Source: Vermamoeba vermiformis
Lineage: Eukaryota
Assembly: GCA_045837725.1 (NCBI GenBank)
Contig: JBEWZL010000145.1
Location: 434,001-498,000 of the forward strand
Direction of reading: 5' to 3'
Length of the DNA: 64,000 nt
In this document: piece by piece, positions 3,688 to 64,000 of the stretch
Layout: each line of letters starts with the position of its first letter
Numbering within the stretch: position 1 is the first letter of the stretch
Program-made: the position numbers and the translations under genes
Notes under the pieces: model-generated
Databases searched by the model: none
What the model was told of the DNA's origin: nothing
Seen by the model: the letters and a program-made list of their open reading frames with translations, nothing else

Positions 3688-3983
3688 AACGATCGTTAAT
3701 ATAAAACAATTACAGTGCTGATATTGTACTCGTGGTCCTTGATAAATACAGCGCGATGAAAATTGGCCGTTTCCGAAACCGTGGGAGATTTCGTGAGATA
3801 TTTTAGGGGCGCCGCACTAAATGAAAATTTTATCTGTCTAATTGTTGTACAACACCGTTTGTATTTGTAGCCGTATTTTGTGGTTTGAAGGTTCAGGCCG
3901 TAATGGCACGTGATAGTTGAGTCCTGTCCCACTACGAGACTTAGCTCTTCCTCTTTGGTCTAATTACTTGATTGGCGACCAAC

Positions 3984-4935
3984 ATGACAGATCAGATTGT
4001 TCGTTTAAATATAGGTGGTTATAAGTACCAAACCACGCGAACAACACTGGCATCCAACGGAGAAAACTTTTTCACCAAGCTCTTGGAAGGCAAAATTGGA
4101 AGCGTGAAGGATGAACAGGGCAACTACTTTATTGATAGAGACGGACAATATTTCCAGCCCATTCTATCTTTCCTGCGAACAGGGTTGCTTACCTTGCCTG
4201 AAGGAATGCCGATCGATTTAGTTGATCTCGAAGCGGATTTCTATTTAATCGACATCCATCCGCAAACCAAGTTGCCCAAATCTGTTCCACTAAGTCATAA
4301 TACTAGTCTTTATTTTAATGGCATTTATTGGTACTCAAAGAAAACTACTTCGGCCGCTTTGCTGAAGCCAGATTCAACAATCCAATTTTATGGGTTGTTC
4401 GACAGTCAACGCACGGAGTACAAACTCGTTAACGAGACAACGCTTGAAGTTGAAGTTTCTAATCGAAACTTAAATGACACTGTTAAATATTGGCTCGTCA
4501 CACTTGTTAGTGGAGAATCTATTGCTTGCAACTCTGGTTTTGGGCGTTGGACAACAATGAACTTTCTCCCGTCTCTTCCACCTATCACCGGCTTCTTTTA
4601 TAGCGGATCAACAGGTTTCGGAGTAAGTATTTCTGTAACCTATCGCTTGCGTTGGAGCTAACATCAAGTCTTAGAGCCTGAAGTTTTCATTCACGAACGA
4701 AGATACTATAATTATCAAGCATTATTCCGCCCCCAAAACAGGATTTCCGCCTGTAGAACCTGCGAAAAAAATTACAGCAGGTGGAGTAATCAAGTATTTA
4801 TTCACATTAGACCAGCAATTTAAAGAATGTGAAGGATCGTACGCAATTTACTCCTTTGGCGTATTGTTGTTAGTCAAAAATCAAGCAAAATCTGCCCTCA
4901 CAAAGCAGTTTTATACGGTGAACGATGAAAAATAA
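3984..4935 (+). CDS. BTB/POZ (KCTD/T1-type) domain protein, 2 exons
   Basis: MTDQIVRLNIGGYKYQTTRTTL...YFIDRDGQYFQPILSFLRTG...EADFY is a KCTD-type BTB domain. GTAAGT donor at ~4624, acceptor at ~4674, and the second exon is open to TAA at 4933-4935. Confidence 0.88.
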
Positions 4936-40987: not shown

Positions 40988-41076
40988 ATATTCTCGAAGG
41001 TATGTAAATAAGTAACGTGAAGTGTAAATGAAAATCAATGTGAACGATCTGGACCATTCTGTACATTTTTTGAACC

Positions 41077-42834
41077 ATGCGACCACACTCGTGTTTTTAT
41101 ATTTTAATTATATTTTGTATATTAGATGTTGAGCGCGTGTTGACTCAACCCACTGCAAAAGTCTATCAGAGTGCAAGAGATAATGGAGACAGATTGCGTC
41201 GCTTGCCCGATCTGCAGTTCACCAAGAAGAACTTTCTGGCCCCTGAAATTATTAGCATCAATATATCAAGCACATACCAGACAATTTTAGGCTTTGGTGC
41301 AGCTTTTACAGAGGCTAGCGCTTACGTAATTGGCCAGATGCCGGCAGCAAAACAAACGGAAATATTTAATGCTTACTTTGGCGATAATGGTCACAAATAC
41401 ACCGTAGGAAGAATCCCTATTGGTAGTTGCGATTTTAGCCTTGCTAGTTACAATTTTGATAACGTTACAAACGACTACGAGCTGGAGAACTTTTCGATCG
41501 ACCATGATCGCAAGTACATCATCCCTTATGTTCAACGAGCGCTCAAGGTATCGTCTAGACCTATTAAATTATACGCAAGCCCGTGGTCGCCTCCTGGTTG
41601 GATGAAGAACAACGGTCAGATGGACGGCAGCAGTACTCCTTGCTTGAAGAAAGACCCAGCCATTCATAAAAGCTGGGCGCTGTATCTTTCCAAGTTCTTG
41701 AACGCTTATAAGCAAGAGGGTAAGCCTGGGGTAATTTTTGAATTTTAGTAGACATTTTCCGTTTAATATTATCGATATTTTTAGGTATCGACTTCTGGGG
41801 CATTACTCCGCAGAACGAGCCCAACAGCGATGGTGTTTGGGAGACGTGCGTCTACACACCCGAGGAAGAGCGAGATTTTGTTAAGAATTACTTAGGTAAG
41901 AAGACGATAATCACTGACCCAGTAGCGTTGTATCAAGGTTTTATATTGTTGATACTCATACGGCTGCACAGGTCCTATGCTCGAAGATACTTACCCTGGT
42001 ATTAATATTATCATGCTTGACGACGATAAGGAGCACTTGCTACGTTGGACAAAGGTTGTTTTGAGCGATCCGGATGCCTCAAAGTAAGCGACACGCTCGT
42101 GTTAATGTCTTAGTATCGTTTCTTATGCCGTCGCACTTTCAGGTATATCCAGGGCATTGGCTTCCATTGGTATTGGATGCTCGAAGATTTTCAGCGTCTG
42201 GATCAAGTGCACGAGATGTTCCCAGACAAGTTCTTGTTGCCAACAGAGGCGTGCAATTGTCCCGGTGTTGCAATGAACAATTGGTTCCGTGGAGAAGAGT
42301 ATGCTATTGATATCTTGGGCGATTTGAATCACTGGTCTGTGGGCTGGGTCGATTGGAATATGGTGCTTGACCCGTTTGGCGGACCGAATCACGGTCAAAA
42401 TTTCTGCGATGCGCCTGTGATTGCTGACCCGAGTACCGGCGTTGTATTCTACCAGCCGACTTACTATGTATTGGGCCATTTCTCTCGTTTCATTCCTCCT
42501 GGTAAGTCTCGATCTGACACCCTTTAACTATGCCTACCCGTTACAGTTGATCAATCTCAATTCTATTTTGCACCGATCATTAAATTACGGTAGAAGTGCA
42601 TATTCTAATAATACGCATTGTTTAGGTTCTGTACGAGTTGGTCACAAAAATGTTGCCGGATACGCTTCGAAGATCTCAGTCACAACGTTCCTTACTCCGG
42701 ATAACAATGTCGTATTGGTCGCATTGAACACCAGTGATGAAGAAGTGACGTTTAAGATTGAAGACTTGCGAGGTTATTACGCTAAGGCCATCAGTTTGGC
42801 TCACAGCATCCAGACTTACGTGTACCCTGCGTAA
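41077..42834 (+). CDS. GBA: Glucosylceramidase / glycoside hydrolase family 30, secreted or lysosomal
   Basis: Signal peptide, YQTILGFGAAFTEA, GRIPIGSCDFS and ASPWSPPGWMKNN. Acid/base TPQNEP, nucleophile LPTEAC, then GWVDWNMVLD..GGPN and YVLGHFSRFIPPG. Confidence 0.93.
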
Positions 42835-43126: not shown

Positions 43127-45617
43127 ATGGAGAGTAACAAATCAACTAAATTCATCGGGGTGATAGCTGGCAAAGCATTACACGTCGAGAGGTTTATAAC
43201 TGAATACGAGCAGTACCGTTTTTTAACAGGTAAATAGCTAATTTATTTATATGTGCTTTAGGCAACGCTTATTGTTATACAAATAGAATCATTTATGCAA
43301 AAAATAATTGCAGCACTCAAAAATTAAATTTAATTTTGATAATCAGAGGCATTGGCTTTGTGGAAAGAAAAAGTTGATATCGCCGATGGAGTTAGCAAAT
43401 ACGTAGACGGATTATTTTTAGACATCGAGCGTAAAGCAAACGAGATCCCATCCATCAAGCCTTTGCTTGCCAACCTGGCCTCCGTTCAAAATCTGCCCGA
43501 ATTTAAAACATTTCAACCCCATTATCTTATTGGCCATAGATATTCTTTGGATGGCTCTTTGAAGGCGCACGTGGATGGCGTTCAGTAAGGAAAATAATAT
43601 GAATCGTTATGAACGGAGTATTAATACGTGTTCATAATAGAGGGTGGGCTGTTATCATCAACATTGGTTGCTCGGCAGTGTTGGAAATTTCACTAAGAAA
43701 TGCCTCAGCGAAACGTATTATTAATTGTCACAATATTTAAACCAATATAACTAACATCATTTGTATAGATGCCGTTACGTTAAAGAGTGGCGATGCATTT
43801 GTATTTGCAAGTGATCAAGCGAGTGGTGTACAACACAGCGTAAAGCAGATCCTATCGGGTACTTGCCCGAAAAAGCTCGAAGATCTAGCTGCTGACCGTC
43901 GATACGCATTTATACTTAGAGATAATTTAGCCACTGAAGTAGTACGTATTATTTCATATATTATAGAACCGTACACCAACCTTCGCTTCACTAGGCTTCG
44001 TTAATACAAATCACAGAGAAATTTGAAAACGTAAAAATTGCTGAAAAGAGCAAAGTTCGTAAGGTATGATTGGATTATAGGGAAATGCCTATATGTAGCT
44101 AACCGTGCAATTAGATTTGGGACGCCTCTGACTCGTTCAAGAACCAAGTGTTGCACGAAACATTTCCCACATTGCCTTTGGAGATCTCCGAATACCTCAC
44201 AGAACACTTCGACGCCCGTGGATTGGGCAATTTTGGGCAGTTAAACGCGGGCACGAGTCAATTTGTGCATTTGTAAGTCATATACAATTATATCAAGTCA
44301 GCTTTTGACCCTTAATATTCGCAGATCTGATGAGCTCTGGAAGAAAATTTACAAAAAAATGAATCCGAAAGACTCTAATGACTACAAGCTAAGAACGACG
44401 TGGGAGCACCTCATCCGTCGAGCATATCGCCCTGTCCCTCCCGCTGACTCATTTAGCCTTGTCCTTAACTTTGGCTCGTTCGATGTTCAAGCTGGTCTTA
44501 CAGGCGATGATGCTCCGTCCATGATCGCGCCCAGCGTAGTGAAAAAGTTTAACGGACACTGTTACGCTGGAGATGAAACGGTACATATCAACGGAGGACA
44601 GGCGATACGGCCTATCATTGCACGAGAGGTCATCGATAAGAACGCATTTGAGATGCTCTGGGAGTACAGTGTTTCACATACACCTCACCGCGGACGAGAA
44701 GACATGGCCACGTTAGTCTTGTTAAGTGATCCGAAAGCGGCTATTCGTGAAAGGACAGCACAAATTGCATTCGAGACGTGGGACGCACCGCTGTATTACT
44801 TGGCTAATCCTCATGTCACGTGCATCTATGCAGCAGGAATCACATCTGCTTTGATCATTGATGTTGGGCACGACATTACCTCAATCAATGTCATATACGA
44901 AGGTACGTCATAAGCTTAATATGAGTATAAATAATATACAAGTCTCGTGTACTAACGATGCGTATGTAGGCTATTTATTGCCTCATATTGTCAAGGTTCT
45001 CAAAGTTGGCGGAAGGAACGTAGAAGCCGTGCTGCGAGAAAGGTTGCAACAAGATTGTCCTGAGCTACTTGAGCACGTAGATCTCGAGGCATTCAAGCGA
45101 AGGTACTGTTACGTCAGACAGGCCAACGATACTGGAGCCGAGAAGCGGCCAGTTACAGTGAACGGAAAGACCTATTCACTGAACAGCACTGTGTTAACTG
45201 ACCCGTGTGAAGTGCTGTTTCATCCTGAGGACTTTAAGCAAGCAGGCAGCAGTCTAGTCGAGCAGATTCAGAGCGTCTTTAACAGCATGGCCGCAGAAGA
45301 CAAAGAACTAATTAAAGTAGCCAGCACGATTGTCCTGTCTGGCGGCCCAACTTTGCACGAAGGATTCGTTACACGTCTAGAACGCGAGTTGAAAGAGATG
45401 TCCCCTCAACAGGAGTTCAAACTCATTGCCCTGCGATCTCGTCAAGTCGATGCTTGGGTCGGGGGGTCTATTCTTGGTAGCCTCAGTACATTCCCGAGCA
45501 TGTGGATTACAAGGGCAGAGTACGACGAGTCTGGTAAGTACTTTAAATCCGTGGTATTTAGCACGAGTTTTGACACTTTTGACAGGTCCAGGGATACTTC
45601 ACAGAAGGTGCTTCTAA
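43127..45617 (+). CDS. AlkB-type 2OG-Fe(II) dioxygenase - F-box - actin-like fusion protein, paralog A
   Basis: In-frame splicing gives YSLDGSLKAHVD, IINIGCSA, LKSGDAFVF..HSV..GTCP..RYAFILR (AlkB), then FPTLPLEISEYLTEHFDARGLGNFGQ..SDELWKKIY (F-box), then [34 protein letters not shown] (actin fold). Confidence 0.8.
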
Positions 45618-45695
45618 ACCAATCATTTGCTTTGGAGATAAACGGCGATTATATTTTACATCATTTACAGTACATTGAGTGTTCAGAAAAGCAGC

Positions 45696-47873
45696 TTAGA
45701 CTGTTGGCAGAGGCTCTTCAGCGGCAGTCGGTGTTTGTCGTGTGGTGCTAGCTTTGGCAGCTAAAACATCGTTGTTAGACGTGGTGTTGGACGCAGAAAT
45801 CGATAAAGAAAGTTACGTACAAGAACTGGTCTTCCATGACTTCGAAGGTCGTTTTCTCTGAATAGTCAATAGCTGAGCTGTCGAGACAATGGCCAGCGTT
45901 GAAAACACAACGACATTAGCGCCAAATTGCCTTTGCAGTGGGTTCCATCTAAACAGAGACAAGATCAGTTATCTTACATCAGGCCATTAATTCTCCGTTT
46001 AACTGCGTACTTATAGTTGGTCAAAATTGCAGGGTACAAAGCCAAGATCAAAAGCATGCCAAGAGCCACGAAAATAATTTTGACAGTCATCTATGGTAAA
46101 CATTGTTAGGTGGGCACAAAAGAATTGTCACGTGACAGGTGAGGACTTACGAGCTTGACAGCGGAGTTGCGTGAAGAGTTTTGACCGAGACTGCTTGACA
46201 TTTTTCTCGCGAAGGCCAAGACCTTTGCACCGACAGCAACGAGAAACACGGCAGAAATTCCAAACAAGATCCACACGACGATGATTACATAGAGGTAGTT
46301 AGGGTTACCGACGTATCCGAGACCCAAAAACACGGCAAAGAGGCCAATAACTAATGCCAAAAACACGTAGAACGGCGCTGACATTTTGCCGAGCCATTTT
46401 GCCGAGGGCTTGGAAGAGATGTAATCGGAGACAGTCTCGAGCCAGTACAACGTGATCAACATGGCTCCACAGACTTTATAACTATCGTTAGTCTCGCGTG
46501 TTGAATAGTGATATGTCTAACGTACATGTGAGAGGGATATGAAGAGTCTCTAAAATGAAGGAAGCAGGCAATGAATAAAGTCCGCGACTTCGGAACGGAT
46601 CCACGAAATAAATTAATCTCACTGTAGGACCGTTAGGACAGTGATATAACAAGTTAAAGTATAGTACTTACTGATGTTATTAAGCATTTCGACTCCGATG
46701 AATGCCTGAAGAATCGTAAATTGACAGCCGTTGGCGCGAGTGGCTTCAACCAGTTTCCAAATGCTAATGCCTAACAATGCAGCAAACACGGCAATAAATA
46801 TCACTTGATAGGCTATACAACCAGCCGAGTCGTAGAATTCACTCCAAACGTTAGGATCTAAAATATTTATGTTTTAAGACAAGGTCGAGATTATTATCAG
46901 TTTTTACCTGGCGTTAATTGAATATGTACGGTTGAATTTCTGGCTAAGTCGATTAAGAACGTGTCTAAGGATGAAATCTAAATAAAACGTTAGTTAGAAG
47001 AAAGGAAACGAGCGAAGATCTTACGTAAACGCCAGGGACGGTGAAAGGACCAGATTCGTCTTCGGAAGGCAAACGAACGTCTCTACCTGGTAAGGTTTCA
47101 AAGGCGTAAAGTATCACGGCCAAGGCATTGACTACAAGAAGTTGATTATGTTGAGACAAAAATTATTACCATAAATGGAAAAGTATGAATATGGTGCTTT
47201 TTTTTAAATTTAAATTTAAAGCGTACCTTGTTTGGCGTGAATTAATCGACGTCCGAATGAGCAGCCATTCGAAGCCGTGGCAAGGATAATTAATCCAGTT
47301 GCGTCAAAGTCGAATCCGTTACACCCTGAACCTTCCTAAAGAAGACATTAGATATTGTAAGATCAGTCGACATTCTTAATTGATCGAATCTAATTGTGCT
47401 AGTGTGTCGAGAAAATTTAAATTTGAATTGCTTAATTAGGAAAGTTGGGTTCTGTATGTGTACGCGAATATGCACTTACCACGAGGACCAGTTGACCAGT
47501 AATATTGAAGTTTGTGGTTGAATATTCGACTGGAAGTGCGACGACAGTGGGAAAAGACGAATTGTCACTGTACATAACAGATGTCAGCTGGATGTGAACG
47601 TAATCAAAGAAAAAAATAGTTCATATGCAATAGTAAGTAATAATTGTCTTATTTGAAGCAGGAATTATGGTAATTTCCAAATTTATTTCATGCCGTGCAA
47701 TTAATATAAGTTTTCAGCTGAAGTAATCTTCATAATCATTTTCAAGTTGAATAAACTTACGGCGTTAGTGGTGATAGAATAATAATATCTCCAGATACTC
47801 TATCAAGTATTCCAATAGAGAATACGACTATAAACAAAGTTGTTGCTATCCGCTTGTGAACCATTGGGTACAT
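45696..47873 (-). CDS. Signal peptide + PA-like extracellular domain + multipass (about 7 TM) membrane protein, paralog A
   Basis: MYPMVHKRIATTLFIVVFSIGIL..., NALAVILY...PFTVPGVY, then TM exons (ORFs 46619 and 46106). Exon-by-exon similarity to 48526..51023. Confidence 0.65.
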
Positions 47874-48525
47874 CCACTGTAGTACTAACGATAGCAACTA
47901 AGAGTTAGATTTGTGTTTGACTAACCTAATAAAAATAAAAATTAATTAATTAACCTGAAGGGAAGAAAGAACTAATGACACACATGTCAATCACGATGAA
48001 ATCTCGAGATGTCAGCCACGGAATACATAATTAACATCTTACAGAGACCAGCGAATAACGCCTCGTTGCGACCAATATGCCTAACGTTATTATCTTAGGA
48101 TTCGACGAAGAGTGAGCTAACGTCGTACTGTTAACCAGTTCTTCTTATAACCCATTACTCGTTGGCAGCATTATCCTTGACACTTGCCAAAGGGCCTATC
48201 ATTGAACCGTGTGTATTGCAGTACAAATTCGAAATTTCTTTGCCATTGCTCGTTCGGCAAATGGTGGAAGTGCTTGTTGCAACGTTGATGTTGTGGGCAT
48301 GCCAGATCTACGTCCTCACTAATTTGCGGCAAAAGAACGTATTTGTCGAATCCAATTCGGCCTTCTTCCACGGTCGAAAATTGAAAAAGCGAGATCCAAA
48401 CAAAAGGTTGCAACTGCGAGGTTTAAGTATTCGAAACGTAGGTCTGCCAAACGAGTAGATTGCGTTGAAAATTGGAAATTTACATATATAATACAGTACC
48501 GTAGTTAAATTAATGCAATGTCTAT

Positions 48526-51023
48526 TTAGACAGCGATGTTCGTGCTTGCTGATTCAACGACTGGATTCATATCCGTTCTCGAAACCGTACGCGAGGTAGA
48601 GCCCAGGTTAGCTAATCGACCTTAATTGTTAATAAGGCTTTGTATAACAATATAAGGTACTTACTTGAGCTACTAGTCTTCCAAGACTTCGAAGGCTTTC
48701 GTTTTTGGATCGTCAAAAGTTGCGCGATCGAGACAATCGCAAGACTGGCAAAGATAATAACGTTCAAGCCAAATTGGGTCTCAATAATTCCCAGACTATA
48801 TTAATTAGCCATTAGTCTTGTTATTAATAACCATTCTAAAAAATCTGTAACGTACGACTTGATCTTGGTGAACGAAGGATAAATGCTCAATAATAAAATC
48901 ATGCCTAATGCTACGAATACCAACTTGATAGTCATCTGTATAATATGAGATTATTAATATGAGTTTACACGCTATATTAATCGGTTTTTACGTACGACTC
49001 TGACAGCCATATTTCGTCCAGCAGTTCTGCCTACATTTTTAGACAATTGGACTGAGACTGATAACACTTTCGCACCTTGATATTACCATATTAGGAAACT
49101 GCAAATGAACGGTTGAATTATCGAGGATATCTTACCGACTGCGATCAAAATGATAGCTGCGATCCCGAACATGACAAAAATAGCAATCACGAAGCTATTC
49201 GAGTTGTCATTTCCTAAATAGGCAAGTGTCAAGAACGCGACGTAGAGCGCAATGACGATGCTCAGAAACACGTAGAACGGCGCGGACATTTTTCCGAGCC
49301 ACTTGGCAGTTGCTTTTGAAGAAATGTAATCGGAGACTGATTCGAGCCAGTACAACGAAATTAACATCGAGGCGATGACTATAAAAGGAAATATTAGCGA
49401 AATTAGTACATAAGAATCTATGGATCTAATTTCTGAAATGCAAAAGGGACGAGTTAGCCGTCCCATCCGGAGTTGGTTTACGTACAGGTCAGCGGCATAT
49501 GAAGGGTCTCTAATAAGAACGAAGCAATCACGTTATATAAGCCTCGACTTCTGAATGGATCGAAAAAGTAAACAGTTCGCACTGTAAAAGAAAATTATTA
49601 GGTACGGCGGATCGATCGGAATTTTTATGCCGACTTACTAGTATTATTAACGATTTCGACCCAAATAAAGACTTGGAGAATAGAGAATTGGAACTTCATA
49701 TGCTGCACGACTTGAACTAACTTCCAGATTGCAATTCCAAGTGTGCCGGCGAAGATGGCCAAGAATATGGCTTGATAGGCAATAAAGCCCGGTGAATCAT
49801 AGAATACGATCCATTCATTGGTGCCTATATTGATAACCAAAAATGATTAATTAAAAATTTAACTCGCACGATAAATATTTTGTGAACCGATTCGCGAAGC
49901 ATTGCGCGTATAATCGCAATGCAATTGAACCGAAAATTAGGTTATTTTATCGTAGTCTTCACGTAGAATTTGGCGGTTGAATTGATGCACGCATTTAATC
50001 AATAGAATTGATGATTGAATTGGATCGGACTATCGGAGCTTACCTGGCGTAATATTAACGACGACCGAAGAGGAGTTAAGCAATAGAGCTGTTAAGAAAA
50101 TGCCAGATTTTCCAGTCTTGAAATAAAGAGATTAGATTCAAAATTTCAGTACGAGGTAAAACTTGATGCGGATCTTACGTAAATACCCGGGATATCGAAC
50201 GGTCCAGTATTGTCCTCTTGAGGCACTCTAGCGTCTTGGCCTGGTATAGCGTTCGTAGAAAGAAATATTACGGCGAGAGCGTTGCCTAATGTAAGAAAAG
50301 AATAAAATGTTAGCGACCACGATAAATTCCTGCATTTTGCTAAATTAGGAAAAGGAATTTTAGGCCTAAATTTGATTCAAAACTCGTATTGTAAATTATA
50401 TGGACCCGCTACCTGCCTTCCATTGCATGTTGTACTCGCAGGCCATAAGAACAGCCTCGTTTTTCTGCTACGGCGACAATTTTTCCTTCAACGTCGTAAC
50501 CGTCATATCCATCGCAGCCAGAGCCGTTCTATAACATTATATTAATTCTAGAGATATCTTTTAAACTCAACGATTTTGTAATTTGTAACAACTTCTTAAA
50601 AAGGAAAAATGGGCGGATGTTAGCCGTCAAAGTCTTAGTTACTTACAACGAGCACTAATTCTCCTGTGATATTATAACTTGCGACAGCCCACATTCCTGG
50701 CACTGCATTCACGATCGGATACGACGAGTTATCCCTACAACAAACGGATGTCATGCATCATATAAACTAAAAATAAACAAATCGCGACGATTTGACAATT
50801 AAATAATATACTAGTAAGCCGTTATAAAATAACATAATCAGTCAAATAGAATTATCATTGCCGTAATGATTTATCGTTAATTTTGCGTGTTTGTAACTTT
50901 AACCGTGTCTCTCTATGTAATAACTTACGGTGTGGTTGGCGACAAAATCACCAAGTCGGAGCGGACGCCGCTAGCCATAAGCATTATATAAATGCTAATA
51001 AGAAGTAGGTAGAGTCGTTGCAT
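48526..51023 (-). CDS. Signal peptide + PA-like extracellular domain + multipass (about 7 TM) membrane protein, paralog B
   Basis: MQRLYLLLISIYIMLMASGVRS..., NITGELVLV, GCDGYDGYDVEGKIVAV and GNALAVIF (PA-like). DPFRSRG and LISLYWLESVSDYISSK TM exons follow. Confidence 0.65.
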
Positions 51024-52205
51024 TTGGTGTCCGTGAAGTTATACAAAATTTCGGATGGCTACACAGATCTGGACTACACAATCACAAAGGTAGAATTCTA
51101 TTCCAAATAAATGAAATTCGTGCGCGCAATCAACCAAGGTCTCGCTTGTTACGCTCTTATTGAATCAAACAGTTAATACTGATTGACTGACAGCGAAATT
51201 TTGTTTGACAGGTACAGCACGTGGGATCTGATGAGACTGCACGTGTTATACCTCCCTGCGAGTCTATTATACATGTAATCGCATTATTTAAAGCTAAATA
51301 TAGTCCCAAGTTCGCTATCACGCGTGACTTTGGATTGGATCAAGCGAGTAAACTTCTGTGGATCCGTTACGCAGGTATTTTATAGGTATAGAATGTCGTA
51401 GTGAATATATTACGATTAAGAATAGTTAATAACGTATCGATACGGACAGAATTGCACGAGAACGATAGAAAATGCAATTTGCAAATCTAAATCCACAAAA
51501 TTGATTGAATGTTATTAAATGCCGTGAATTATCTACAAAAAAATTCTGTTTAAAAGTATGCCCTACGATTCGTATTTTTCGGGCTGCCGGTAAAAATCAA
51601 ATAATATTTTTGAATTAATTTTTTTTGGCTGCAGTTTGCTTTCAAGCAATCTTTAGCGTAGATCGACGGCCGATCTACGATGTGCCAGTTTGCATAAGTC
51701 TTGTGAGAATTGGTGAACTAATGCCTATATTTCCGCTTACCAAGCATTGCGTGTATATACACCTTCCGCTTGTGCTTTCCGCTAGGGGATCTGTTCGAGT
51801 TAGATCTACTACTCATGTTCTCCTTGTGGTTATGTTGCTCTAAGGTAGCTTAAGAACGTTATTGGCAAAATCTTGCCGAAAATTGATCCGTCCGTGCGCT
51901 TGGCTGAAACTCAGGCATAAACTTAATAATAGATAGTATATATGTACATAAGTATTAGCTTATACGACCTCTTCGGGGTTATGGTACCTAATTAACGGTG
52001 ACAGTTCATCATGTCGCATCCATTACCAAGTGTCATTAGGCGAGCGTGCTAATTCGATTTGCGGACGTATGGTTATCCACCAGATTATGTATTAGTCGTA
52101 ACAAAGTTCTGTCTACTGTTCCTAACGGAACTACTTTAAAGTGCTGAACAATTTTAGAGACAGATCGCGAAACCTTTGGCATAAGACTGCTAATTACTAG
52201 TTTAT

Positions 52206-53314
52206 CTATTCTTTAGATTCGGCTTTCTTCCAATATTGATTGAAAATAGACTTTTGAAGCTCGAGCAAATTAGGGAACTTTGCCAACAAGTCCTGCACTT
52301 CCTTGTTGGACACCGTCAATAATTCAGTTAGCTCTGCAAAGCAAATGATATCGAGGAGATGCACTTGGGTGTCAGAAAAGAAGTACTTCTGGTTGCCTAA
52401 GAGCGTTGACAAAGCGAACAAGTTCTTCTCGGCAATAATCAACAATTCCTCTTGAGTATGGCGACCTAGTTTCGAGTTAATCCGGCGCTTATTAGCACGT
52501 AATATTGAATCAATTAGAATTAAGTTGGAATCTTACCAGTTCCCTGGGCATAAAGATTTCCGATTACTTTTCGTCGGAGAAGCTCTGGAACGACCCATTC
52601 TGATGATTAGAGGAAGTTAGACCATGTATCAGCGCTAAATATAATTAAGGATCTTACTAATAGGCCAAGCAAGACGACCAAACACTTTCTTTTTAAAGTC
52701 CTCCCAGCCTTGCTCATTTTGCCAGCGATAGTAGACCATAATACTGCATTATATTAGCCATATTAATTAAAATTAATTATTTTCGTACTTATTTAATGAG
52801 TCTTCAATCAAGCGTTGATAAGCGATTGTCAACGCGCGTTGTTGATCTGACAGATCTTTGTCGATGTCAGTCTGAGGCAAGTCTTTATTTAATCTGGCGA
52901 TGATAAACGAGCTATCTTCAACAGTTTCGCCGTTGATAAGCACCATCGGGAATTTAGCTAAAGGCCATCGTTAATCAATTAACTGCAAAAGATAAAAACT
53001 GAAATTAAGATACGGTGTTTTAGATGATAACGAGGGATTATTTACGGATAATTATTAACGAGGATTTTAGCAATTTTTAGTCCACAGCGCGTAATTGACA
53101 TTTAGCTTCCTTACCTTTTCCAGATGTGGGACGTTGCTCAAATTTGTTCGTGTAAGGAATATTCGTCACCTTGAGGTACGTCTCCAACTTCAAGCAGAAC
53201 GGACTCAGCGAGATATCCTTGTAGGGGAATTGGACTAACGTGATCTGTGTATTGGTTTGGCCCTACGATCGAGCAATGAGCTTCAGTATTGATTAGGGAT
53301 CGTCTTACCTCCAT
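52206..53314 (-). CDS. FAX/metaxin-family GST-fold protein (failed axon connections homolog-like)
   Basis: SLSPFCLKLETYLKVTNIPY, K|AKFPMVLINGETVEDSSFII, QRLIEDSL, YAQGT|GRHTQEE and LSTLLGNQKYFF...LLDIICFAEL. Confidence 0.88.
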
Positions 53315-53914
53315 TGTAGTTAAGAGTAGTATTGATACAAAAACGCGGTAATTTTGAAATGATTTTTATTATTGTTCGGAGCGGAACTGTCGCAGAGTTT
53401 CGCCGGGAGGCATTTCAGTGAACGAGTGAACCGATAACATCTCGTTACAACATTATCTTCGAAGATAATAGCACCGCCTTGCATTCATCTCGTTGTATGA
53501 TGCTAAGTTTCGGATTACCAACGTAATATCTTTAAAGTGCTGAACAATGTGAGTTATACGTCGGATCTCCATATCGGTTGCCTTGAGTGAACAACAATGA
53601 TCGCTAATAGATTTATTGTTTAAATTCGTTGTTCTACCAGTATTGATTATAGATAATCTTTTGGTGTTTCAGTAAATTGCAGATCTTTATTGAACGCTGT
53701 CAGCAATACATTCAATATGGCAAAGCATCGAGGAAGCGCACTTAAGCGTCAGAAAAAAAGTACATCTTGTCTCCCAATAGAACTAATACTCGCCACCAAG
53801 GTCGATTGGGCATAAGTTATGCCAGAGTTTTAAGTGTAGACACTAAGGGGTATACCTGTGTCCTAGGCCCCTCATCGCCTAGCAACCGGGATCCTCCTAA
53901 AATATATATAAACA

Positions 53915-54070
53915 GCTTGTTAGAGCAATCGCTGATAAGCAATCGTCAACGTTGACGATCTTACAGATCTTTGTCAAAGTCAGTCTGCGGCATAGCTTTG
54001 TTCAATCTGACAAATTAAGGAATTATTTCGACTGTTTCGATGTGGATAAGCACCATCAGGAATTCACCGA
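53915..54070 (-). pseudogene. Degenerate duplicate of exon 3 of the FAX/metaxin gene
   Basis: gctgataagcaatcgtcaacg...acagatctttgtcaaagtcagtctg...gataagcaccatcaggaatt aligns with 52795-52958, with indels that break the frame. Confidence 0.7.
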
Positions 54071-54398
54071 CACGAGAATTATAATTAATTATTTATTTAC
54101 CTTAAATTGTTAACGGACGTCCAATCCTTTGTACTCCACGTGCTTAATCGCCGATATTTCCCAGCTTATTATATTCTTATCGTTGTATCGATATTTCTTA
54201 CTTTATTCTGCGCACAAAGTTTGAAATGGGCGAGATGTGTTGGCCAAACTTTGAAGTTCTTCGAATTTCGTTTAAAAGTTGCTATTTAAGCATGTCTCTT
54301 TCTTGCTGCCATTGTTCTTCTTCGGCTAAAACCTTGAATAAAGATTTTTGGAGTTATTTCGAGCGTTATTTTGCAAGCAAGCACAGCAACTCTTCTAA

Positions 54399-57117
54399 AT
54401 GGGTAATAAAGGGTCTCATTCGGATAAAAGCAAATTTTGTCAAGTATGACGATCTAAGGCATTGCTAGCGATTAATTTAGACTTACATCCGTTTTTTAGC
54501 TCTCTGACAAGGTGTTGCACGTTAAAAAATTGCTTGGAAAAAAGCAGCAACGTGGAATAGTAGACGGTAAGTAATAATATTCAAATTCCGTGCAAAATAA
54601 TAAAATTGAATTTTTTTTTGAATTTGTTCTAATTTTAGTGCAGATGTGCTCAATATGGCCGCGTCTGCAACAGCCACACACTATCAAAATAGCCAAAATA
54701 ACTACACTGAAACTCAAGCGATAGATTTGACGGAGGGCTATCAAAAACTTCCACCCTCGCTCGTCGATTTTATTTCCAAAATTGGCGGTGTCGTGCAACA
54801 GAATATTCCAACATTTCCAGCTAAATTTGAGCCCGTCCATATAACTCAATACACATATCACCTTGACGGCAAACTTGACGGTCACATCGATAACATTAGG
54901 TAAGGATCCAATTTTTTTATTATTATAATTGCTTAGCTAGATAATATGATAGTGGTTGGGTTGTTATATTGAGTTTTGGCTGCACGGCAAAATTTTGGTT
55001 GCAATTGGATAAAAATAGCGACAAAATAGGTATATTTATCATCCCTAAAAATTACTGTCGCACGTCTTAACACCACTTGCCTTTTATAGAAATCGATTTT
55101 GAGAGCGGAGATCTGTTAGTGTTTCCTAGCGACACCAAATCAGGCATTCGTCATGGCATCACCTCTATTGTACCGCACACTTGTCCGCACAATCTCCAGC
55201 CGGATCTCACTCACACCCGATTTTGTTTGCAGTTCAGAGAAGAAATTCAAGTTGATATCGATATTAGCGTAAGACTTAAATATACAGCACTAATATTAGT
55301 GGTATTAATTAGTGTTTAAATAGCCGAGTGTCGAAAAAACTGAAGAAAAAGCTAGCGTTGCTAAACCTCCTCCCCAATTAATTTTGCACGATGAACATGC
55401 TGTGTCACCGTTAGATCGATTCACTATGGTACTAAAAACAGCATATTAATTCAATTGAGTATTAATCATACCGTAATTTTCAGACTCAAGAAGAGATTGA
55501 CACTACGCTCCGAAACACTTTTGCCGTGCCGTCGGAAATTTCCCAAATGATTATGAATCGTTGCAGTGTTTCTACGCTTGGCCGTCTAGCTCAAACAAGC
55601 TTTTCGTGGAGACATATAGTCTATAAGTAAGTCGGTGCATATTCGTCAAAGTGACGATCTGACACGTGATCAGTTTCGATCAGCGATGGAAAGAATTGTA
55701 CCTGTCAAATGTCAAACCAGCTCCAAAGCCATCAAAAAAAGACTTTTTCATGCCAGTAATGTTTTTTGATGAAAGACATCGGCCGTTCCCGCCTGAAGAA
55801 AAATTGTTCAAGCGGAAGTTGCCCGAGACTACTTGGCGATCGTTATACTGCGCTAACATGTTTAACACTGAAGAACAATCCGCGACATTTTGTATAACTA
55901 ACTCATCGCGCAATCAATTCGCTGGATTTTGTGGCGATGATGCACCCAGATCCATCATGAGCGGCTTCGTTTCGACTGCGGTAAGTTCGTCATATGAGGT
56001 TAATTAGTATAATAACGTTTATTATAGGGAGGAAATAATTACGTTGGCAAAAGATTGTCGTGGGCAGATAACGTTAGAAAAGTTGCGTCGAAGAGGAACA
56101 TTCTGGATGTGGATGCGTTGAGCTTGTGTTGGGAAAAGGCGCTAATGCATGACTTGCACGTGCTGCCGCAAGTGTCAGGCGTATTAAGCGTCACACCTAC
56201 ATTTATGAGCAAGCAGAGCCGAGAAGACTTGACTCAGATCGCGTTCGAACAATTCAACATGTCTGTATTCTACATTTCACCCGCTGAAATATGCGTTATG
56301 TATTCTACGGGAAGAACGACGGGCGTTGTTGTTGATTTAGGCACTCAAGAAAGCTCGGTAGTGAAGGTCTATGAAGGTTCGTATTTTCTCAGAATTTCAT
56401 AATTTAATTAATTAATTAATTTTTTTTAAAGGTTATATGGATAGAGGGAACGTAGATCAAGATATGCTCGCAGTTGGTGGTGATGCAGTAACGAAAAAAT
56501 TCCAAGAATTAGTGCTGCAGAAGTACCCGCAGTTATCGACCAAAGACTTTGATTTCTTTGAGAGCCTTAAAATAAGCGTCTCTGGATTAGTAAAAGACGG
56601 CATGGAAGTAGAAATGAAATTGGCGGAGAAATTATTTGGCGATGTTACTAAAGAATACAAAGAGGCTTGCGACGTGTTGCTGCATCCGAACAAATACGGC
56701 TTGGCACCAGTATCATTAGCAGAACATATCGCAACAAAAGCACGGTCATATGAAGATGAACCTAATGTCGATGTTATTTTAAGCGGTGGGCCAGCGAAGT
56801 CATTTTTGGATCTGGATCTGCTTCAAAAAGAAATAGAAGAACACGCGCCGCGCAAAAAAATTAAATTAGTGCATCCACCTGTAAGTAATATTCATTGATT
56901 TAGTTCGAAATGCGACCCGTACTAATATGCTTCATTTAAGGGTCCTGAATTCCATCATTGGATTGGCGGTTCTATTTTAGGCAGTCTTAGTACATTCCAG
57001 AAAATGTGGATCTCAATGCCCGAATACGAAGAAAGCGGTACGTACTATAGCTTCCATATAGAGTGAATTTAATTATTTAATTTAGGTCCTCAAATTGTTC
57101 ATCGCAAGTGCTTCTAA
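54399..57117 (+). CDS. AlkB-type 2OG-Fe(II) dioxygenase - F-box - actin-like fusion protein, paralog B
   Basis: MGNKGSHS..., [43 protein letters not shown] (AlkB), then [42 protein letters not shown] (F-box), then [44 protein letters not shown] (actin fold). Confidence 0.8.
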
Positions 57118-57189: not shown

Positions 57190-60100
57190 TTAGTCATCTA
57201 TGCTTTCATAGCAGCACGCGCAACACTTCCAAAAGCTCTTCTTCGGCTCAGATCTGTTGCCCAACAACGGACTGCTTTCGCTGAATGACGCGTCGGAAGT
57301 AACCTCCGAGCGAGGCTTGGACAGCGCTGTCAAGTTGCGGACTTTGTTGGGTCCCACGTTCGTGTTGTTACCGGAAATTTCGGGTAAAAGTGGCACGGTC
57401 TCTTCGACAATAGCCATGGAGTCTCTGACGGGCTCAGCGTTGCGGCCTCGTTTGACAGGTGACGCGGCCACATGTGACGGCTCAGCGGCTTCAAGGTGCG
57501 CAGTTTTCTTGACATTTTTAGTCTTAATAACCACGTCTTTAATGCCTGTAGCTCGCATGATTTTCTTTGCAGCCTGATCTAAGAGCTCCACTGTCTCGCA
57601 TTCGACGGTGCGTTTCTTGAGCGTGTGATTGGGCTCTTGATATTTCAACACAATGTACTTCTTGTCCTTGATCTTGATGCTCTTGACCCACGACAACTTG
57701 ACGATCCAAATGTCTTCCAGGGCCTTGCCAAGCATAGCAAAGTGCAAGTAGCACAACAGTCTCTTCGTGCCCAAGATCACGTGATCGTGCTTGGTCGTTG
57801 TAAAAGCGTGCATGTCGTAACATTCTTGCATGAACTTGCCCTGGTTGGTGGTACTCAAAAGTTCCTGGCCGATAGCGAGGTCCAAGTTGTACTTTGTGAG
57901 CACGTGATCAGCACCAAAGTATCGCGGAGGTCGCACACGAATCTTAGCCTTGGCGTCGAACATTGTCGTTGTGTTTTTGATACCTTCAGTCGTTCTGCTG
58001 ACGAGATCGATCGCTCCGACTGTGGGTTTCAGCACGACACCTGTCAAACCACGGCCAAGACCCTTCAAGAAACCAATACCTCCTTGTTTGGCTCCTTTGA
58101 TAGGCTCAGTCTAACGAGGAATGTGAAATTAGTTCGGCTCGTAGAAGTGAGGGCAACAGAAGTACGTACCACAACGCCTGTAATGCCCTTGTACAAGCCA
58201 ATACCAAAGTCAGTAATGCCGTACACAAAACCTTCTCCAACGTGCTGAGCTTTCTTTTGTTTTCGGATAGCTCTTTCTCGTTGGTAATCTTCGTCCATAG
58301 TCAAAGTTTCACCGACTAAATAATCGTTAGTATTGCTGCTTGTCTAGGATATTACTAACTTCATTACGTACCTTTAGCAACAGTGCTAGTGATCTTGCTG
58401 GCCGTGTTGAAAATAGCGTAGGTCGTGTTCTTCAACAAACTGCCCGTGCCCTTAGCCAAGCCCAATCCAAACTCCGTGGGGCTACGAACAATAGCCTTGG
58501 CAGGCTCGTGGAAGAAGTCGTAGACACCCGTGCCCAAGTTATTAACCAAGTTGACTGGACTGCCCAAAAAGTCAGCACTGCCAACGATCTTGTAGGCCTG
58601 TTTGAGACCAGCACGCTTAAAGTGTTCAATAATTCGGCTCACTAAGTCCTTCTGCGAGCTGAACAAGTGTTGAATCATCAAACCGTTCAACGCTAACGGC
58701 GCTTCTTCGACGTTGGCAAGTGTTCCGACAACTCCCAAAATGCGCTCAAGAGCTGTCTTGTCACTATAAGCACGGCATTAGGAAGTGAAATTTCAACGAA
58801 TTGATGCTTGAGAACTTACATATCGGGGTTCAAGATCTTCGGGGTAGTCATGAACGAGACGTTAGCCTTAATAGGATTGATGTGCAATAGCTCAAAGTAG
58901 AACATGTTCGATGATGCAAGATCTTTGTCGCTCAATCGTTGTTTTTGCGTGGTCACTTCGCTGAACAACTTTTGTTCCTCGTCAACACCTAATCCAAAGT
59001 TAGTTCTGGGCAGTAATAAAGAGACACGTGTCAAACGTGTCAAACATGTCAACTTACCTTTGACCTTATTAAGGTACCATTGCAAATTAGTAGCAAAAGC
59101 GAGAGCTTGGACCAAGAACGTTTGATCGACGCTCAAATCCATCTCTTGGACTTGCACGGCAAAGTAGCGCAAGAACTGAATGCTGCCGTAACGAGCGTCC
59201 TTGATCACGGACATGCTCAAGAACTTGTTGTCTTCAGCGGGTCTGGCGAATAAGACGATGGGGTATGGCGTCAAATAGAGCTGATTATCGATTTGCATCG
59301 TGCCCACTGAAAATTCGATCGTTTGATCTACGTTCGAGGAAGTGAACTTGAGGTAGATTGTTTGCATCGTAACATAGAGAAGTTCTTGTGGCTTGAGGGC
59401 CTTGTTGGGGTTCGTGTCAATCACTGACATGCCAATGCCCTTAAGTGACGCCTTGAACTCGATTGTGGTCTGAAATTTCGTTTGCATTAGCACGGTAAGA
59501 ATTGTAAAATGAGTAATTTTTATACCTTTCGTTCCAAGTTTGCGAATTGAATGTCATCCACCGCGTCCTCTTCCATCGAGTCTGTCGGCGTGTTTAATGA
59601 CTCGGTGCTGTCAGTCAAACTCTCGTCCTTCAAGCGCTGTTTAGGCTCCTTAATAGCTGGAGTTGCAGTGTCAGCAAGTGTCATGTTTGGCTTGTCTGCC
59701 TCGTTGATGTTAAGCACTCGTGTCGGTCCGTCAGCTTTAACTTCGAACACCAACCACCTGTAGCACGTTATTAGTAAACAACGTTACGATACGATTCGAA
59801 TGATACTTACTTTTTGCTTCGCAAGGCGCGGATAGGCTTGGCGTGGCCAATTTTTTCGAGTGAAATTTCACTGTACTGCATCGCATTGCCGCTGTCATCC
59901 ACGACCTTCGCAACAAGCTTTTTGTCAGCCATTTGAGGCTCGTCCCAACAATAAGCAGCGGAGGCGTTAGCACTCAAGTTCATCAGTGACTCGCAGCCCT
60001 TCTGTTGCAGAACAAAATTCTCGTTGGTGTTGTTTTGGATCTGATAGCCAAAGACCTCCTCGGGGCCTCCAAATACAACAAAAGTCGTGCCGTTCAAGAC

Positions 60101-63100
60101 TTTAACGTGCACGGCCAACGTGTCGACTTGTTTGCTCTGCGGGTTCTTCAGCTTCAATTGCAAGTGATCGGCTTGATCGATCGAGAATCCAGTGGACCAA
60201 TACTGATCGTCCTTATTGACTTCATTGTTCTCGTCTGCAAATTTGACGCTCAACTTGGTCACGTTCTTCAAGTTTGGCCAATGGAAAGGAATCTGTTGAC
60301 CAGGCTTAATCGCATAGTAACTGTCATCTGCTTCAATAGGCTGATTGTTGTTATTGGACTGGACTAGTCTCGCCGGCTTTTGTTTGTACAAAACAGTTTG
60401 TTCCATTTGATTGACGAGCATGAAACCAGGGTAAATCTTCACCAACTTGGTACGCCAGAACTGTGAAAATGTTAGCTATTTCTAATGATAAGATAATAGT
60501 TTAACGTTACGTACTCGACCGGGAGCAGGATAAACAATGACCGAGAACTGGTACAATCGCTGCGAGGCAGATTCGTCCTTTATGTCAACTAAACCTTCGT
60601 TTTGAACGCCAAGAGGGAAGGCCTTTGAGAGGTACAATAAGAATCAAATGTAAATTGGGTACGTTAAACACATACCTTTGACCACGATGAGTTTTCAACG
60701 CGCAAGCAAAGTTCCTTGTTTGAGAAATAGACGGTGTTTTTGCCCACTTCAATGCCTCTGTTTTCTTCGTCAATGTACCACGAGCTAGGATCGCCAACGA
60801 GAGGTTTGACGGAAGACTCATCGAGCGTTTGACCGGCAGCAATTTTCTTGGAATTGGCTTCAGCTTTGTACGAGAGTCGAAGACCTGTGTTGTTAATGAT
60901 CCAGTAGTTGCTATAAAAGGAAACCTTTCGCGTGCTGTCATCACTAATACCAGGAGTTAGTTTGACACTTTACGACTAACCAACACGTACTTAAGGAAGT
61001 CAGCCGATAGCTGCAAAGATCGAGACTCGTTGTCGTTGATTTTGATGGTCTTAGTAGCCTTTTCTTTAGAGCTGAACGTCGTTGGATCACTCCAGTCAAA
61101 TCCTCGAATTGACACTGACACTGACACGTTCTTTGACATGTGTCGCGTGTAATAGACTTCGTGCTCTTCTCCGTGGGCAAGAGTTGCAGTGACAATCTCT
61201 TCTTTGCTATCATTTTCGATAACCTGCCGAGCATTAGATAAGGCTATGAATGAATGCTAGTTTTCGTACCTTGTAAGCTAGATCCGCTGCCAACAAGTTC
61301 TCGATGATGACGGGTGGTGACAAAGTGACTTCGACCTCCTCACCAATCTCGCCCATCTTGCGCGTCTCTTTCACAGCGCAGAACCACCACTCGTTCTCGT
61401 CCTCTTTGTTGTTATTGTTATTCTGATTGCCGTTGAAGATGTTGTTGCGACAGAAGAGCAAGTTGTTGTCCCTGTCACTCCACTCGAACTGATCGGGCAC
61501 ATTTGTATCTGGCTTGTATCTAATAGTGGAAAAGTCTATCCAGTCAATAGGAATGGACGAGCTCGCACCAGGGGCTAAAAAGTGGGCCACATTAGTTGGT
61601 ATAAAAAATACAAAATTATTGGACGTACGAATTGCAGCCAAGATTGTGGGCACTTCTTGCTTCTCGAGGAAGATGTCAATGCGGTTCTGAGTCTTGTTGA
61701 TGATCTTGAATGCACTGCGCAAAGTGATCGTTTTGCAGGCGGCTTCGTAGATGACCTCGCCAACGACGATCGCCGTGGGGCTCACACGGTACAAGTGATT
61801 GCCGACCTTACCAATAGGCATGTCACGAATCACTTCGTACTCGGTATTGGGATCAACAATACGAATCGAAAGTAGGTACGTGACACGTTGTTTGATGACT
61901 TGATCTCTGCCAATACGGCTGTAAACTAGTGCCTTTTCATCGCCACTTTCAAGGATTTGAGCAGTCTAAAGGAGCAATAGTTAATTAGCATGCAGGAAAC
62001 AATCGCTTCTTACTTCTTCGCCTTCATGCGACCACCAATACTTGATCGGCTTGCCAATGTCGTTCTTCAACGTGTACGGATTGAACGATTGGCGCTTGCT
62101 CTGCACTAACTTGTTCTTCTTGCCTGCGTCAAGTGACTTGTTCAAGAAGTCTTCTTGGACTAACGCGAAAGTTGTGAACAACAAGTCAATGAAGGACTTG
62201 GTCAAGTTCATATTCAACATCTCGTCAGATGTGATGTTAATGGAGCTCTGTCCGCGGTAGTTCTCGTATTCTAATTCAATGCTCCAGGGCTCAATGACAG
62301 GTTCATAAGCTGACAAGTCATTGTTGTACGCGTCAATGAGCAGCGTGGCAATCTTAGAATAGAACTCCATCTTGCCGATTGTGTAGTTGGTCATAATGCT
62401 TTCAAGATCATTCAACTCCATTTTCAACAAAGGTGACGTGAATCCTTCAAACTTGTCGTTCAATAAGCTGAACGAAAAACCACCAATGTTCAACACCATC
62501 TGAAGGCGTATTAGTTAGGTATAATTCTATTGATTGAGTCGACGTACCGTCATTGTAACTTTGTTATCGCTGGGCGGAGCAAGGCCTTGTTTGGCCAACT
62601 GTTCGCGCTCAGCATCTTCATCGTCTTTCGTCTCAACAGCCAAAATTACGCGTTGTCCCTTCTCAAGTCCACCGGGAGGAATTGGAATTTCAGTGATTTC
62701 TTCGACCTTCTTTTCAGCGTTTGCTGCCTCTTCTTTCTTGGCTTGAGCGAGAGCAGCTGTTGCAGGCTCTGTTTTAAAATCATCCAAGAGCGGCTTCCAC
62801 GACTCGTAAGCTTGTAAAGCGAACTTAATATCACTGTACGAAATAATGGTGTCGATGGGGCTGATGTTAATCGCGATTCTACGACCGTTCTCAGCGTTGG
62901 CTGCCATGTTCAGTGAAATGTTGAAGGGCTGAATGAGCGGCATTTGGTTCGAGATTGTGTGAGACTAAACGAGAGCGGTAAGCACAACATTAGAACGGAA
63001 TAATAGTCACGTACATCTGACTTGAGGCGGCAGAAGTTAGCGTCAAATTGAGTCAGTTGCAAGTCAATCTGTTGCTCGCTACCGCGTGTCACCATGCGCA

Positions 63101-64000
63101 CGCGTGAGTCGCCCAAATGAAGCACGAAAGCGCTGCTCTCGGCCATTGTAGGGTTTTCGAGCACGCAAAGTTCGGGTGACTTTAATAGGACAATCAAGTC
63201 CATGACGCTGTTTTGCTGCTGAATTTTCTTGGTCTCTTCAGCCTCGATTTGTTGAATCCTGTCCATCTTTTGTACAGCGGCTATGGAGAGAGTCAGTAAT
63301 CTCCTTATTTAAACTAATATACGTACGATTAGCCTTTTCGGTTGCTTCTTTCCATTTGGCCAAAGACCTGGTCATGTTGTCAAGCCACGGTAACATGTAT
63401 CGCTTGACAGCCAGCAATGAGTCCGGCAACAAGTAGATACGAGGGCGGTACAGCTCTACATTGATGCCCATGCGGTTGTCTTTCGGATTAGACTCGTAGT
63501 GCACCGAGACCTGACTCTGTTCGGCCTCAGTGTTATCGATCGGGACAGGCGTCAGCAAAGTCTTAAAAAAAAGAGTTAGACGAGTACCAATAAGCAAGTG
63601 AGACTTACATTGAACGTCAAAGACGACTCAGCACGTTTGTCGTACAACACGATAGACTGAAGATTCAATTTCAGCTTCATTTGGCCATCGTTGTACATGT
63701 CCAAATCGTTCGTCAAGCCGTTGATCGCGAAGTTAGCAATGGCCGTTGAATTTCCTTGTTCATCAATGCCATCAGCTTTCAACACTGTCAATGAGACCTG
63801 TGCCAAAGACGCGACGACACGGGTATTGACCCAAGCATTCTTTTCTTCAACACCAACAGCCAATTCATTGTTATTGTTCGGTGCTGCGAGCTCTTTGTTA
63901 GCAGTAGGTTGTGCCCCTTGGTCTTGTTGGCTCGTGTCAAGGCCTGATGCCTCGAGCACTGATTGAAGCTCAGCGACATCAGGTGCTGGCAGCTCGCTCA
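57190..64000 (-). CDS. VPS13: VPS13-family lipid transfer protein, 3' portion (5' end outside the window)
   Basis: YEPVIEPW, VAB/SHR-BD region (LVNQMEQ..PFHW, YCWDEP), QELLYVT, MQIDNQL..TPYPIVL, GSADFLGSPV and GLGRGLTGVVLKP..RVRPPRYF, then a PH-like C-terminal domain. Confidence 0.93.

Follow-up and report, generated by a model that had tools for sequence, protein, structure and literature searches.

Two genes joining dioxygenase, F-box and actin-fold parts

A 64,000-nucleotide stretch of contig JBEWZL010000145.1 of Vermamoeba vermiformis (hereafter the window; eukaryotic DNA of about 40% guanine plus cytosine (GC), with short introns) carries two paralogous forward-strand genes. Each joins in one reading frame an AlkB-like Fe(II)/2-oxoglutarate (2OG) dioxygenase region, an F-box or F-box-like segment and an actin-fold domain. 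Gene 1 (43127..45617, +) comprises 656 codons in nine exons separated by eight introns, with its ATG at 43127 and exons at 43127-43229, 43347-43584, 43641-43714, 43769-43945, 44017-44063, 44115-44272, 44325-44902, 44970-45533 and 45586-45617. Gene 2 (54399..57117, +) comprises 701 codons in twelve exons separated by eleven introns, with its ATG at 54399. Its exons 1 to 6 lie at 54399-54443, 54500-54566, 54644-54899, 54953-55029, 55090-55268 and 55324-55428, and exons 7 to 12 at 55484-55626, 55674-55980, 56028-56376, 56432-56880, 56941-57037 and 57086-57117. An in-frame stop is found upstream of each ATG, and the stop codons end at 45617 and 57117.

Both models were rebuilt by hand and by script from the window sequence. 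The frame runs uninterrupted through all exons of gene 1, across eight introns, and of gene 2, across eleven. All 19 introns are of the GT..AG type and measure 47-117 nt. The start and stop coordinates given by an earlier sequence-only reading of the window were exact, as was its claim that canonical introns join the frame. Reading through the introns meets an in-frame stop in 18 of the 19 (seven of eight in gene 1), the exception being gene 1 intron 8. The GC fraction differs between exons and introns in both genes (0.466 versus 0.300 in gene 1, 0.428 versus 0.276 in gene 2). Branch-site-like motifs of the CTAAC type (ACTAAC, TACTAAC, GCTAAC) stand just upstream of the acceptor in the introns at 43740-43768, 44903-44969 and 44064-44114; this pattern is typical of fungi and some protists.

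The two products are 30% identical (192 of 642 aligned residues), with 58/195 identities in the AlkB part, 20/77 in the linker and F-box and 112/346 in the actin part. Despite this divergence, six of the eight introns of gene 1 match a gene 2 intron in phase and to within one column of the alignment, while a seventh lies one column off a gene 2 intron and differs in phase. Of the six common introns, one follows the N-terminal helix, one HxDxx and one the F-box, another interrupts the beta-helix midway, and the other two sit at YEG and ESG. The sequence-only reading had listed four of them (HxDxx, F-box, YEG and ESG) and had concluded that the architecture was maintained in spite of heavy divergence; the four were confirmed, two more were added and the conclusion holds. 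Since common introns occur in each of the three domains and flank the domain joins on either side, the three-part gene is older than the duplication, with its frame kept since.

Transcript data came from two kinds of sequencing run. The contigs of run X1, 14 of 14 of which could be placed, are 95-99% like the window. In several genes of either strand they leave out intervals bounded by GT..AG or CT..AC, and therefore behave as spliced RNA of a close relative. Among the X1 matches listed, one joint (55268>55324; depth 6.8, shorter side 76 nt) coincides exactly with gene 2 intron 5 and connects the last AlkB exon to linker exon 6 (55324..55428, +). Another (55979/80>56027/28, GT..AG) corresponds to gene 2 intron 8, inside the actin part, and further pieces end or begin exactly at the exon edges 43584 and 44325 of gene 1 and 56376 of gene 2. 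The corresponding linker of gene 1, exon 5 (44017..44063, +), has 47 nt, is required for the frame between the AlkB and F-box parts and aligns weakly with the gene 2 linker. Exons 5 and 6 of gene 1, which lie between the AlkB and actin parts, contain no Met from which a separate F-box-actin protein could start. The raw RNA reads of runs X7-X9 stem from an organism that is more distant, most of them being 90-95% alike, and cover neighbouring genes. At 92% likeness they placed no reads on gene 1 and reached a depth of at most 0.35 in any gene 2 bin, which is uninformative on expression. Taken together, each locus is very likely one gene with a single three-part product, and the architecture is very likely real.

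Pseudogene status was considered and rejected, as both frames are intact and the relative has spliced transcripts. A tblastn search for a third copy with both products found only gene 1 and gene 2 in the window. The two proteins begin differently: MGNKGS at the N-terminus of gene 2 (54399-54416, +) fits what we take to be the N-myristoylation pattern MGxxxS, which MESNKS at the N-terminus of gene 1 does not.

State of the three domains

Pfam and PDB searches were made on single exons or exon profiles, and spliced regions were compared with local programs. The AlkB-like region of gene 1 (43127..43945, +) spans exons 1-4 and residues 1-197. It holds HVD at 43568-43576, the distal His within 43825-43842 and RxxxxxR within 43897-43920, giving the catalytic set H109-V-D111, H161 and R183..R189. 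The region of gene 2 (54399..55268, +) spans exons 1-5 and residues 1-208, with HID at 54883-54891, the distal His within 55143-55160 and RxxxxxR within 55215-55238 (H118-I-D120, H170 and R192..R198). The iron and 2OG motifs named by the sequence-only reading are therefore present in both genes. In a wider alignment, H109, D111, H161, R183 and R189 of gene 1 align with H131, D133, H187, R204 and R210 of Escherichia coli AlkB; likewise, the HxD...H triad and R192..R198 of gene 2 align with H131/D133/H187 and R204..R210. The RxxxxxR of both genes also aligns with RLNLTFR of rice ALKBH1. A Tyr before HxD is common to both copies and E. coli AlkB, and the motifs align in order.

The family assignment was examined with profile comparisons. 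E. coli K-12 AlkB was chosen by name, which leaves this comparison unbiased by any exon-based selection. Against it alone, the two-copy profile scored 33.7 in hhalign (E 1.6e-4, 102 columns); after shuffling the columns 100 times the score was 13.4 +/- 2.4 and never above 20.5. The match pairs gene 1 residues 84-191 with AlkB residues 106-212, includes HxD and begins in an exon that was not used for picking the bacterial set described next.

That set came from a scan of metagenome contigs with the C-terminal exon profile, which gave 597 pattern matches and, after tblastn, 37 confirmed loci. The GC fraction was 0.61-0.71 in all 37, 27 carried frames of 195-240 codons, and each of the eight frames tested in Pfam was PF13532 (E 1e-44 to 4e-49). 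The scan of these contigs returned bacterial-type, high-GC AlkB genes only and no eukaryotic relative with flanks. The bacterial proteins were picked through similarity to the C-terminal exon, so that tests with them are biased for the C-terminal part. Read with that bias in mind, a hidden Markov model of the 27 frames gave 26.0 bits for spliced residues 1-215 of gene 1 and 28.2 bits for residues 1-245 of gene 2. Scores against the full-length proteins were 23.6 and 25.4 bits, respectively, and the match extended into the preceding exon. A profile of E. coli AlkB and the 27 bacterial proteins matched the two copies with a probability of 96.9% (E 1.9e-10, 170 columns), and a global hhalign run against the bacterial set reached 97.5% over 179 columns.

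Structure searches pointed to the same family. The profile of the two C-terminal AlkB exons matched PDB 5xeg_A (E 9.3e-4), the sole AlkB protein found in the PDB, and the C-terminal exon of gene 2 alone found 5xeg at E 0.021. This entry is named in passages of the literature as rice ALKBH1, a DNA N6-methyladenine (6mA) demethylase. The profile of the N-terminal AlkB exons (A1) gave just two chance-level PDB matches (E 0.43 and 0.5). Pfam searches with single AlkB exons, as distinct from the spliced protein, matched none of four at E<=1 and none of two short ones at E<=10. In a protein-language search (Atlas), which we treat as a lead only, 27 of 30 named neighbours of the gene 2 C-terminal exon were PF13532 clusters. 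For gene 2 exon 3, from the N-terminal half, the top matches were unnamed viral clusters, with 2OG-type clusters appearing only at 0.87, a weak lead.

These comparisons support the assignment of the N-terminal part to the AlkB family (PF13532) as a predicted dioxygenase domain whose catalytic set is intact and whose N-terminal half is unusual and shortened. It shares with E. coli AlkB and rice ALKBH1 (5XEG) the HxD...H triad, the RxxxxxR pair and the Tyr before HxD. It differs from them in a very divergent N-terminal half, apparently about 20 residues shorter in the presumed lid region, and in being fused to an F-box and an actin domain.

The F-box of gene 2 (55484..55700, +) occupies exon 7 and the start of exon 8. 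Exon 7 matches Pfam F-box PF00646 with 23.3 bits against a cut-off of 20.5 (E 5.8e-5); its 22.1 bits against F-box-like PF12937 fall under the cut-off of 24.3. The F-box-like segment of gene 1 (44115..44350, +; LPLEIS ... ELWKK) is degenerate. Twelve of 52 columns are identical between the two F-box exons, including P.EIS, and the assignment in gene 1 is by position and by this 12/52 identity only. A credible F-box is thus present in gene 2, whereas that of gene 1 is eroded.

The actin-fold domain of gene 1 (44455..45617, +) ends in ...GPGILHRRCF. That of gene 2 (55882..57117, +) could be aligned over its whole length with gene 1 and with actin-like proteins. The two large exons of gene 1 match Pfam Actin (PF00022; cut-off 27 bits) with 81.1 and 87.4 bits, and in gene 2 exon 9 does so with 67.5 bits and exon 10 has no match. 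In PDB searches, the two large exons of gene 1 together covered residues 3-368 of the actin/Arp1 chain. For the C-terminal half of this part, Arp1 (73.2 bits) and conventional actins (72.5 bits) stood about level at the top of the PDB matches, and the C-termini of both products are actin-like.

The nucleotide-binding loops are altered. The canonical phosphate-1 loop DxG(S/T)G occurs in neither gene, the phosphate-2 loop retains DxG only and the adenosine loop SGG is retained in both. Both copies also show a 10-column gap relative to the database proteins P0063, P0087 and P0117, in what we take to be the D-loop region. We infer from these features that the actin fold probably serves as a retained scaffold rather than a polymerising ATPase.

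The sequence-only reading had placed all three domains in both genes. This stands for the AlkB-like domain, the full actin fold and the F-box of gene 2, whereas the F-box of gene 1 has no Pfam match. It had proposed a HMMER/InterPro check of the three domains; Pfam scans of exons recovered Actin in both genes and the F-box in gene 2, but single AlkB exons gave no 2OG match.

The architecture elsewhere and the neighbouring genes

Relatives were sought with gene 1 exon 7 in a HMMER scan over 1.84 billion representatives; 1085 proteins passed E<=0.001, and the best 150 of them were examined. The best two of the 1085 were P0001 (NCBI, contig of 3091 nt), 97% identical to gene 1 exon 7, and P0002 (JGI/IMG, contig of 928 nt, named actin-related protein), 48% identical. 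Both are exon-sized frames that cease being actin-like directly after YEG, the intron site common to genes 1 and 2, so that P0002 points to a more distant relative with the same intron.

No F-box or 2OG domain was found in the 20 actin matches from the best 150 of 1085 that exceed 470 residues and have the matched stretch more than 100 residues in. Phmmer with both N-terminal regions against the same best 150 found only an overlap with P0001. Genes 1 and 2 score 52-67 bits against each other by tblastn, compared with a last score of 48.5 among the best 150 of 1085. Any protein related to gene 1 as closely as gene 2 would thus have been listed, and more distant fused relatives could be missed. 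Word-based protein searches with gene 1 exon 7 (E<=0.001) and with the AlkB exon profile A2 (E<=0.01) found no longer protein, which is weak evidence because such searches need shared words.

Several matches join actin to other domains, namely an ADP-ribosyltransferase (ART, P0035), Profilin (P0070), WW (P0129), a deoxynucleoside kinase (P0013) and a DDE transposase piece (P0111). These may represent genuine fusions of actin to proteins that bind or modify it, or else merged gene models.

The combination of AlkB, F-box and actin was found nowhere in the literature or protein databases searched. As far as searched, the three-domain architecture is undescribed, but each of the two-domain halves is known from other proteins. 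For the second half, plant ARP8/SUSA2 (At5g56180) comes nearest, a single protein in which a divergent actin domain has an F-box on its N-terminal side. According to PMC7562919, it binds the Skp1 protein ASK1, its actin domain is taken as an interaction domain, and the combination is said to be restricted to the plant lineage. The window differs on this last point, as the GH30 neighbour of gene 1 has its best relatives outside plants.

For the first half, KDM2A/FBXL11 and KDM2B/FBXL10 carry an N-terminal JmjC domain followed by an F-box and leucine-rich repeats (as outlined in PMC7729025). They share with the Vermamoeba genes the order of 2OG/Fe(II) dioxygenase, F-box and C-terminal protein-interaction domain. 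Their dioxygenase is JmjC and not AlkB, and their interaction domain is made of repeats and not actin; the resemblance is one of design only. Meanwhile, Dictyostelium JcdI is a JmjD6-related JmjC dioxygenase that associates with Skp1 and whose F-box is conserved across protists, according to PMC9485057. Like the genes described here, it is a protist non-haem dioxygenase carrying an F-box, but it is a JmjC enzyme without an actin domain.

The sequence-only reading had rightly cited the F-box and actin of plant ARP8 (PMC7562919) and knew of no such three-domain combination. That novelty stands for the combination as such, but not for the union of dioxygenase and F-box, already known from KDM2A/B (PMC7729025) and JcdI (PMC9485057), which the reading had overlooked. 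These precedents make the concept less novel, while leaving the novelty of the three-domain combination untouched.

Between the two fusion genes lie two paralogous multi-pass membrane protein genes without a Pfam match (46106-47162 and 49083-50376, both on the minus strand), the second of which is covered by spliced X7-X9 RNA reads. The region holds two duplicated gene pairs and is not a simple tandem block. A gene with GST_N_4 and GST_C_6 domains (52206-53365, -; metaxin/FAX-like) is spliced in X1 and shows the highest depth of the stretch, 33. Directly upstream of gene 1 is a GH30 glucosylceramidase gene (41074-42834, +). Its best relatives in the database collection searched are 48-51% identical, with none above 51%, which leaves the organism without a close annotated relative there; they include oomycetes and a sponge-like gene set as well as protist transcriptomes and metatranscriptome-size contigs. 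Past gene 2, and converging on its end, lies the C-terminal portion of a VPS13 gene (57190-64000, -; PF25037, 59 bits). Further away, the window holds a BTB_2 (KCTD-like) gene (3972-4661, +) and an ankyrin-repeat gene (16287-17513, -).

Possible roles of the fusion

We propose, with a probability of about 0.5, that the products act as Skp1-linked proteins in which the actin fold docks a partner and the AlkB domain oxidises it. Through its F-box the protein would be linked to Skp1, and perhaps also to a cullin ligase, in a design such as that of KDM2A/B or plant ARP8/SUSA2, which could confer ubiquitin ligase activity. The actin-fold domain would hold the partner, most likely by acting as a docking module that neither polymerises nor forms filaments. 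The AlkB dioxygenase would then demethylate or hydroxylate the docked partner or nearby nucleic acid, in a manner dependent on O2 and 2OG.

Several observations weigh against this proposal. In the AlkB part, the N-terminal half alone reached only 0.1 and 2.1 bits in hmmsearch, within the shuffle range, and 17.2 in hhalign compared with shuffles of 11.6 +/- 2.2 and a maximum of 18.5. The C-terminal AlkB exon of gene 1 alone matched no AlkB protein in the PDB, and the tests with the bacterial set carry the C-terminal bias described above. The part is also about 20 residues shorter than bacterial AlkB near E. coli AlkB residues 48-68, in a low-confidence alignment; we take this gap to be the site of the nucleotide-recognition lid with W69. 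The F-box exon of gene 1 has no Pfam match at E<=1 or even at E<=10, and neither the F-box profile of both exons (A3) nor the gene 2 F-box exon alone matched an F-box protein in the PDB. In the actin part, the phosphate-1 loop reads NFGSF in gene 1 and TNSSR in gene 2, where the aligned actin-like proteins have DNG(T/S)G. Among the X1 matches listed, no contig covers all three domains and no full-length transcript was found; the joint between F-box and actin is only implied by a short piece that starts at 44325 with 34 unplaced letters before it. Our searches also yielded no ortholog of known function. The role of an adaptor of a Skp1-cullin-F-box (SCF) ligase, which the sequence-only reading had favoured, is weakened by the degenerate gene 1 F-box, the degenerate ATP loops of the actin part and the missing full-length transcript.

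A different role for the F-box would make the protein a self-regulated dioxygenase of the JcdI kind, tied to Skp1 mainly for its own homeostasis or turnover rather than for bringing in substrates to be ubiquitinated, with the actin fold localising the enzyme. The O2-sensitising effect of JcdI requires its dioxygenase activity but does not depend on the F-box, a domain that may mediate reduced JcdI levels, according to PMC9485057. An accessory F-box of this type would fit gene 1, in which the F-box is eroded while the catalytic residues are kept. JcdI is a JmjC and not an AlkB enzyme, however, so that it offers an analogy only, and we consider this explanation unlikely.

The AlkB domain might instead act on actin or actin-like proteins, with the actin fold recruiting it to monomers, filaments or actin-binding proteins; the fusion would then record, in Rosetta-stone fashion, a link between AlkB as enzyme and actin as substrate. 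AlkB-family enzymes have been functionally tied to actin before: ALKBH4 demethylates actin monomethylated at lysine 84 (K84me1; reported in PMC3674258), as the sequence-only reading had stated, and an actin demethylase of Caenorhabditis elegans, NMAD-1, is reported in PMC10278977. In those cases enzyme and substrate are separate proteins, and the likeness to the fusion is one of function. The apparent shortening of the nucleotide lid region, low in confidence as the alignment is, would fit this reading, as would the Profilin-actin (P0070) and ART-actin (P0035) proteins among the database matches, if these are not merged gene models. On the other side, no particular similarity to ALKBH4 emerged, no search aimed at it having been made, the sole AlkB match in the PDB is a DNA 6mA demethylase, rice ALKBH1, and the shortened D-loop region and altered phosphate-1 loop argue against co-polymerisation. 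A demethylase directed at actin seems quite improbable.

Nucleic acid is the other candidate substrate. The fusion would then be a repair or demethylation factor whose actin fold docks the AlkB domain into a chromatin complex and whose F-box binds Skp1 outside a ligase. Nuclear actin-related proteins are subunits of remodelling complexes. The nearest AlkB relatives found are bacterial AlkB proteins, the only PDB relative is rice ALKBH1, and DNA repair AlkB has matching catalytic and 2OG residues. The region matching the nucleotide-recognition lid, however, is the least conserved and appears shorter, and neither a nuclear signal nor a DNA-binding domain was noticed, no search aimed at them having been made. 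On balance we find such a factor decidedly unlikely.

It is very improbable that the fusion is an artefact in which an AlkB gene and an F-box-actin (or actin) gene lie head to tail and are joined by splice choices. In its favour, no single read or contig among those listed spans all three domains, and retention of gene 1 intron 4 would stop the AlkB frame after 19 more codons and could yield an AlkB-only product. Against it, the same join would be needed by chance in both copies, with common intron phases flanking the joins; Met is absent from exons 5 and 6 of gene 1, between its AlkB and actin parts; and in gene 2 the linker and the last AlkB exon are connected within an X1 contig.

A more far-reaching and quite improbable reading is that the fusion is a Rosetta-stone record of cooperation between AlkB-type dioxygenases and the actin fold. 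The protein would then be an enzyme gated by O2 and 2OG and linked to Skp1, with methyl marks on actin or actin partners as what it reads or erases. If true, oxygen or metabolic state would control cytoskeletal or chromatin proteins through one polypeptide, and the fusion would provide an independent evolutionary witness, from outside animals, for the disputed link between ALKBH4 and actin.

F-box proteins with a dioxygenase of their own that uses 2OG are few, namely KDM2A/B and JcdI, and the fusion would add a third class of dioxygenase to the Skp1-linked enzymes. The union of F-box and actin has been thought confined to plants, and the fusion would show that this design arose outside them. 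At 656-701 residues, the products are small enough to express and assay, and as natural fusions they offer a test of whether AlkB enzymes act on proteins of the actin type.

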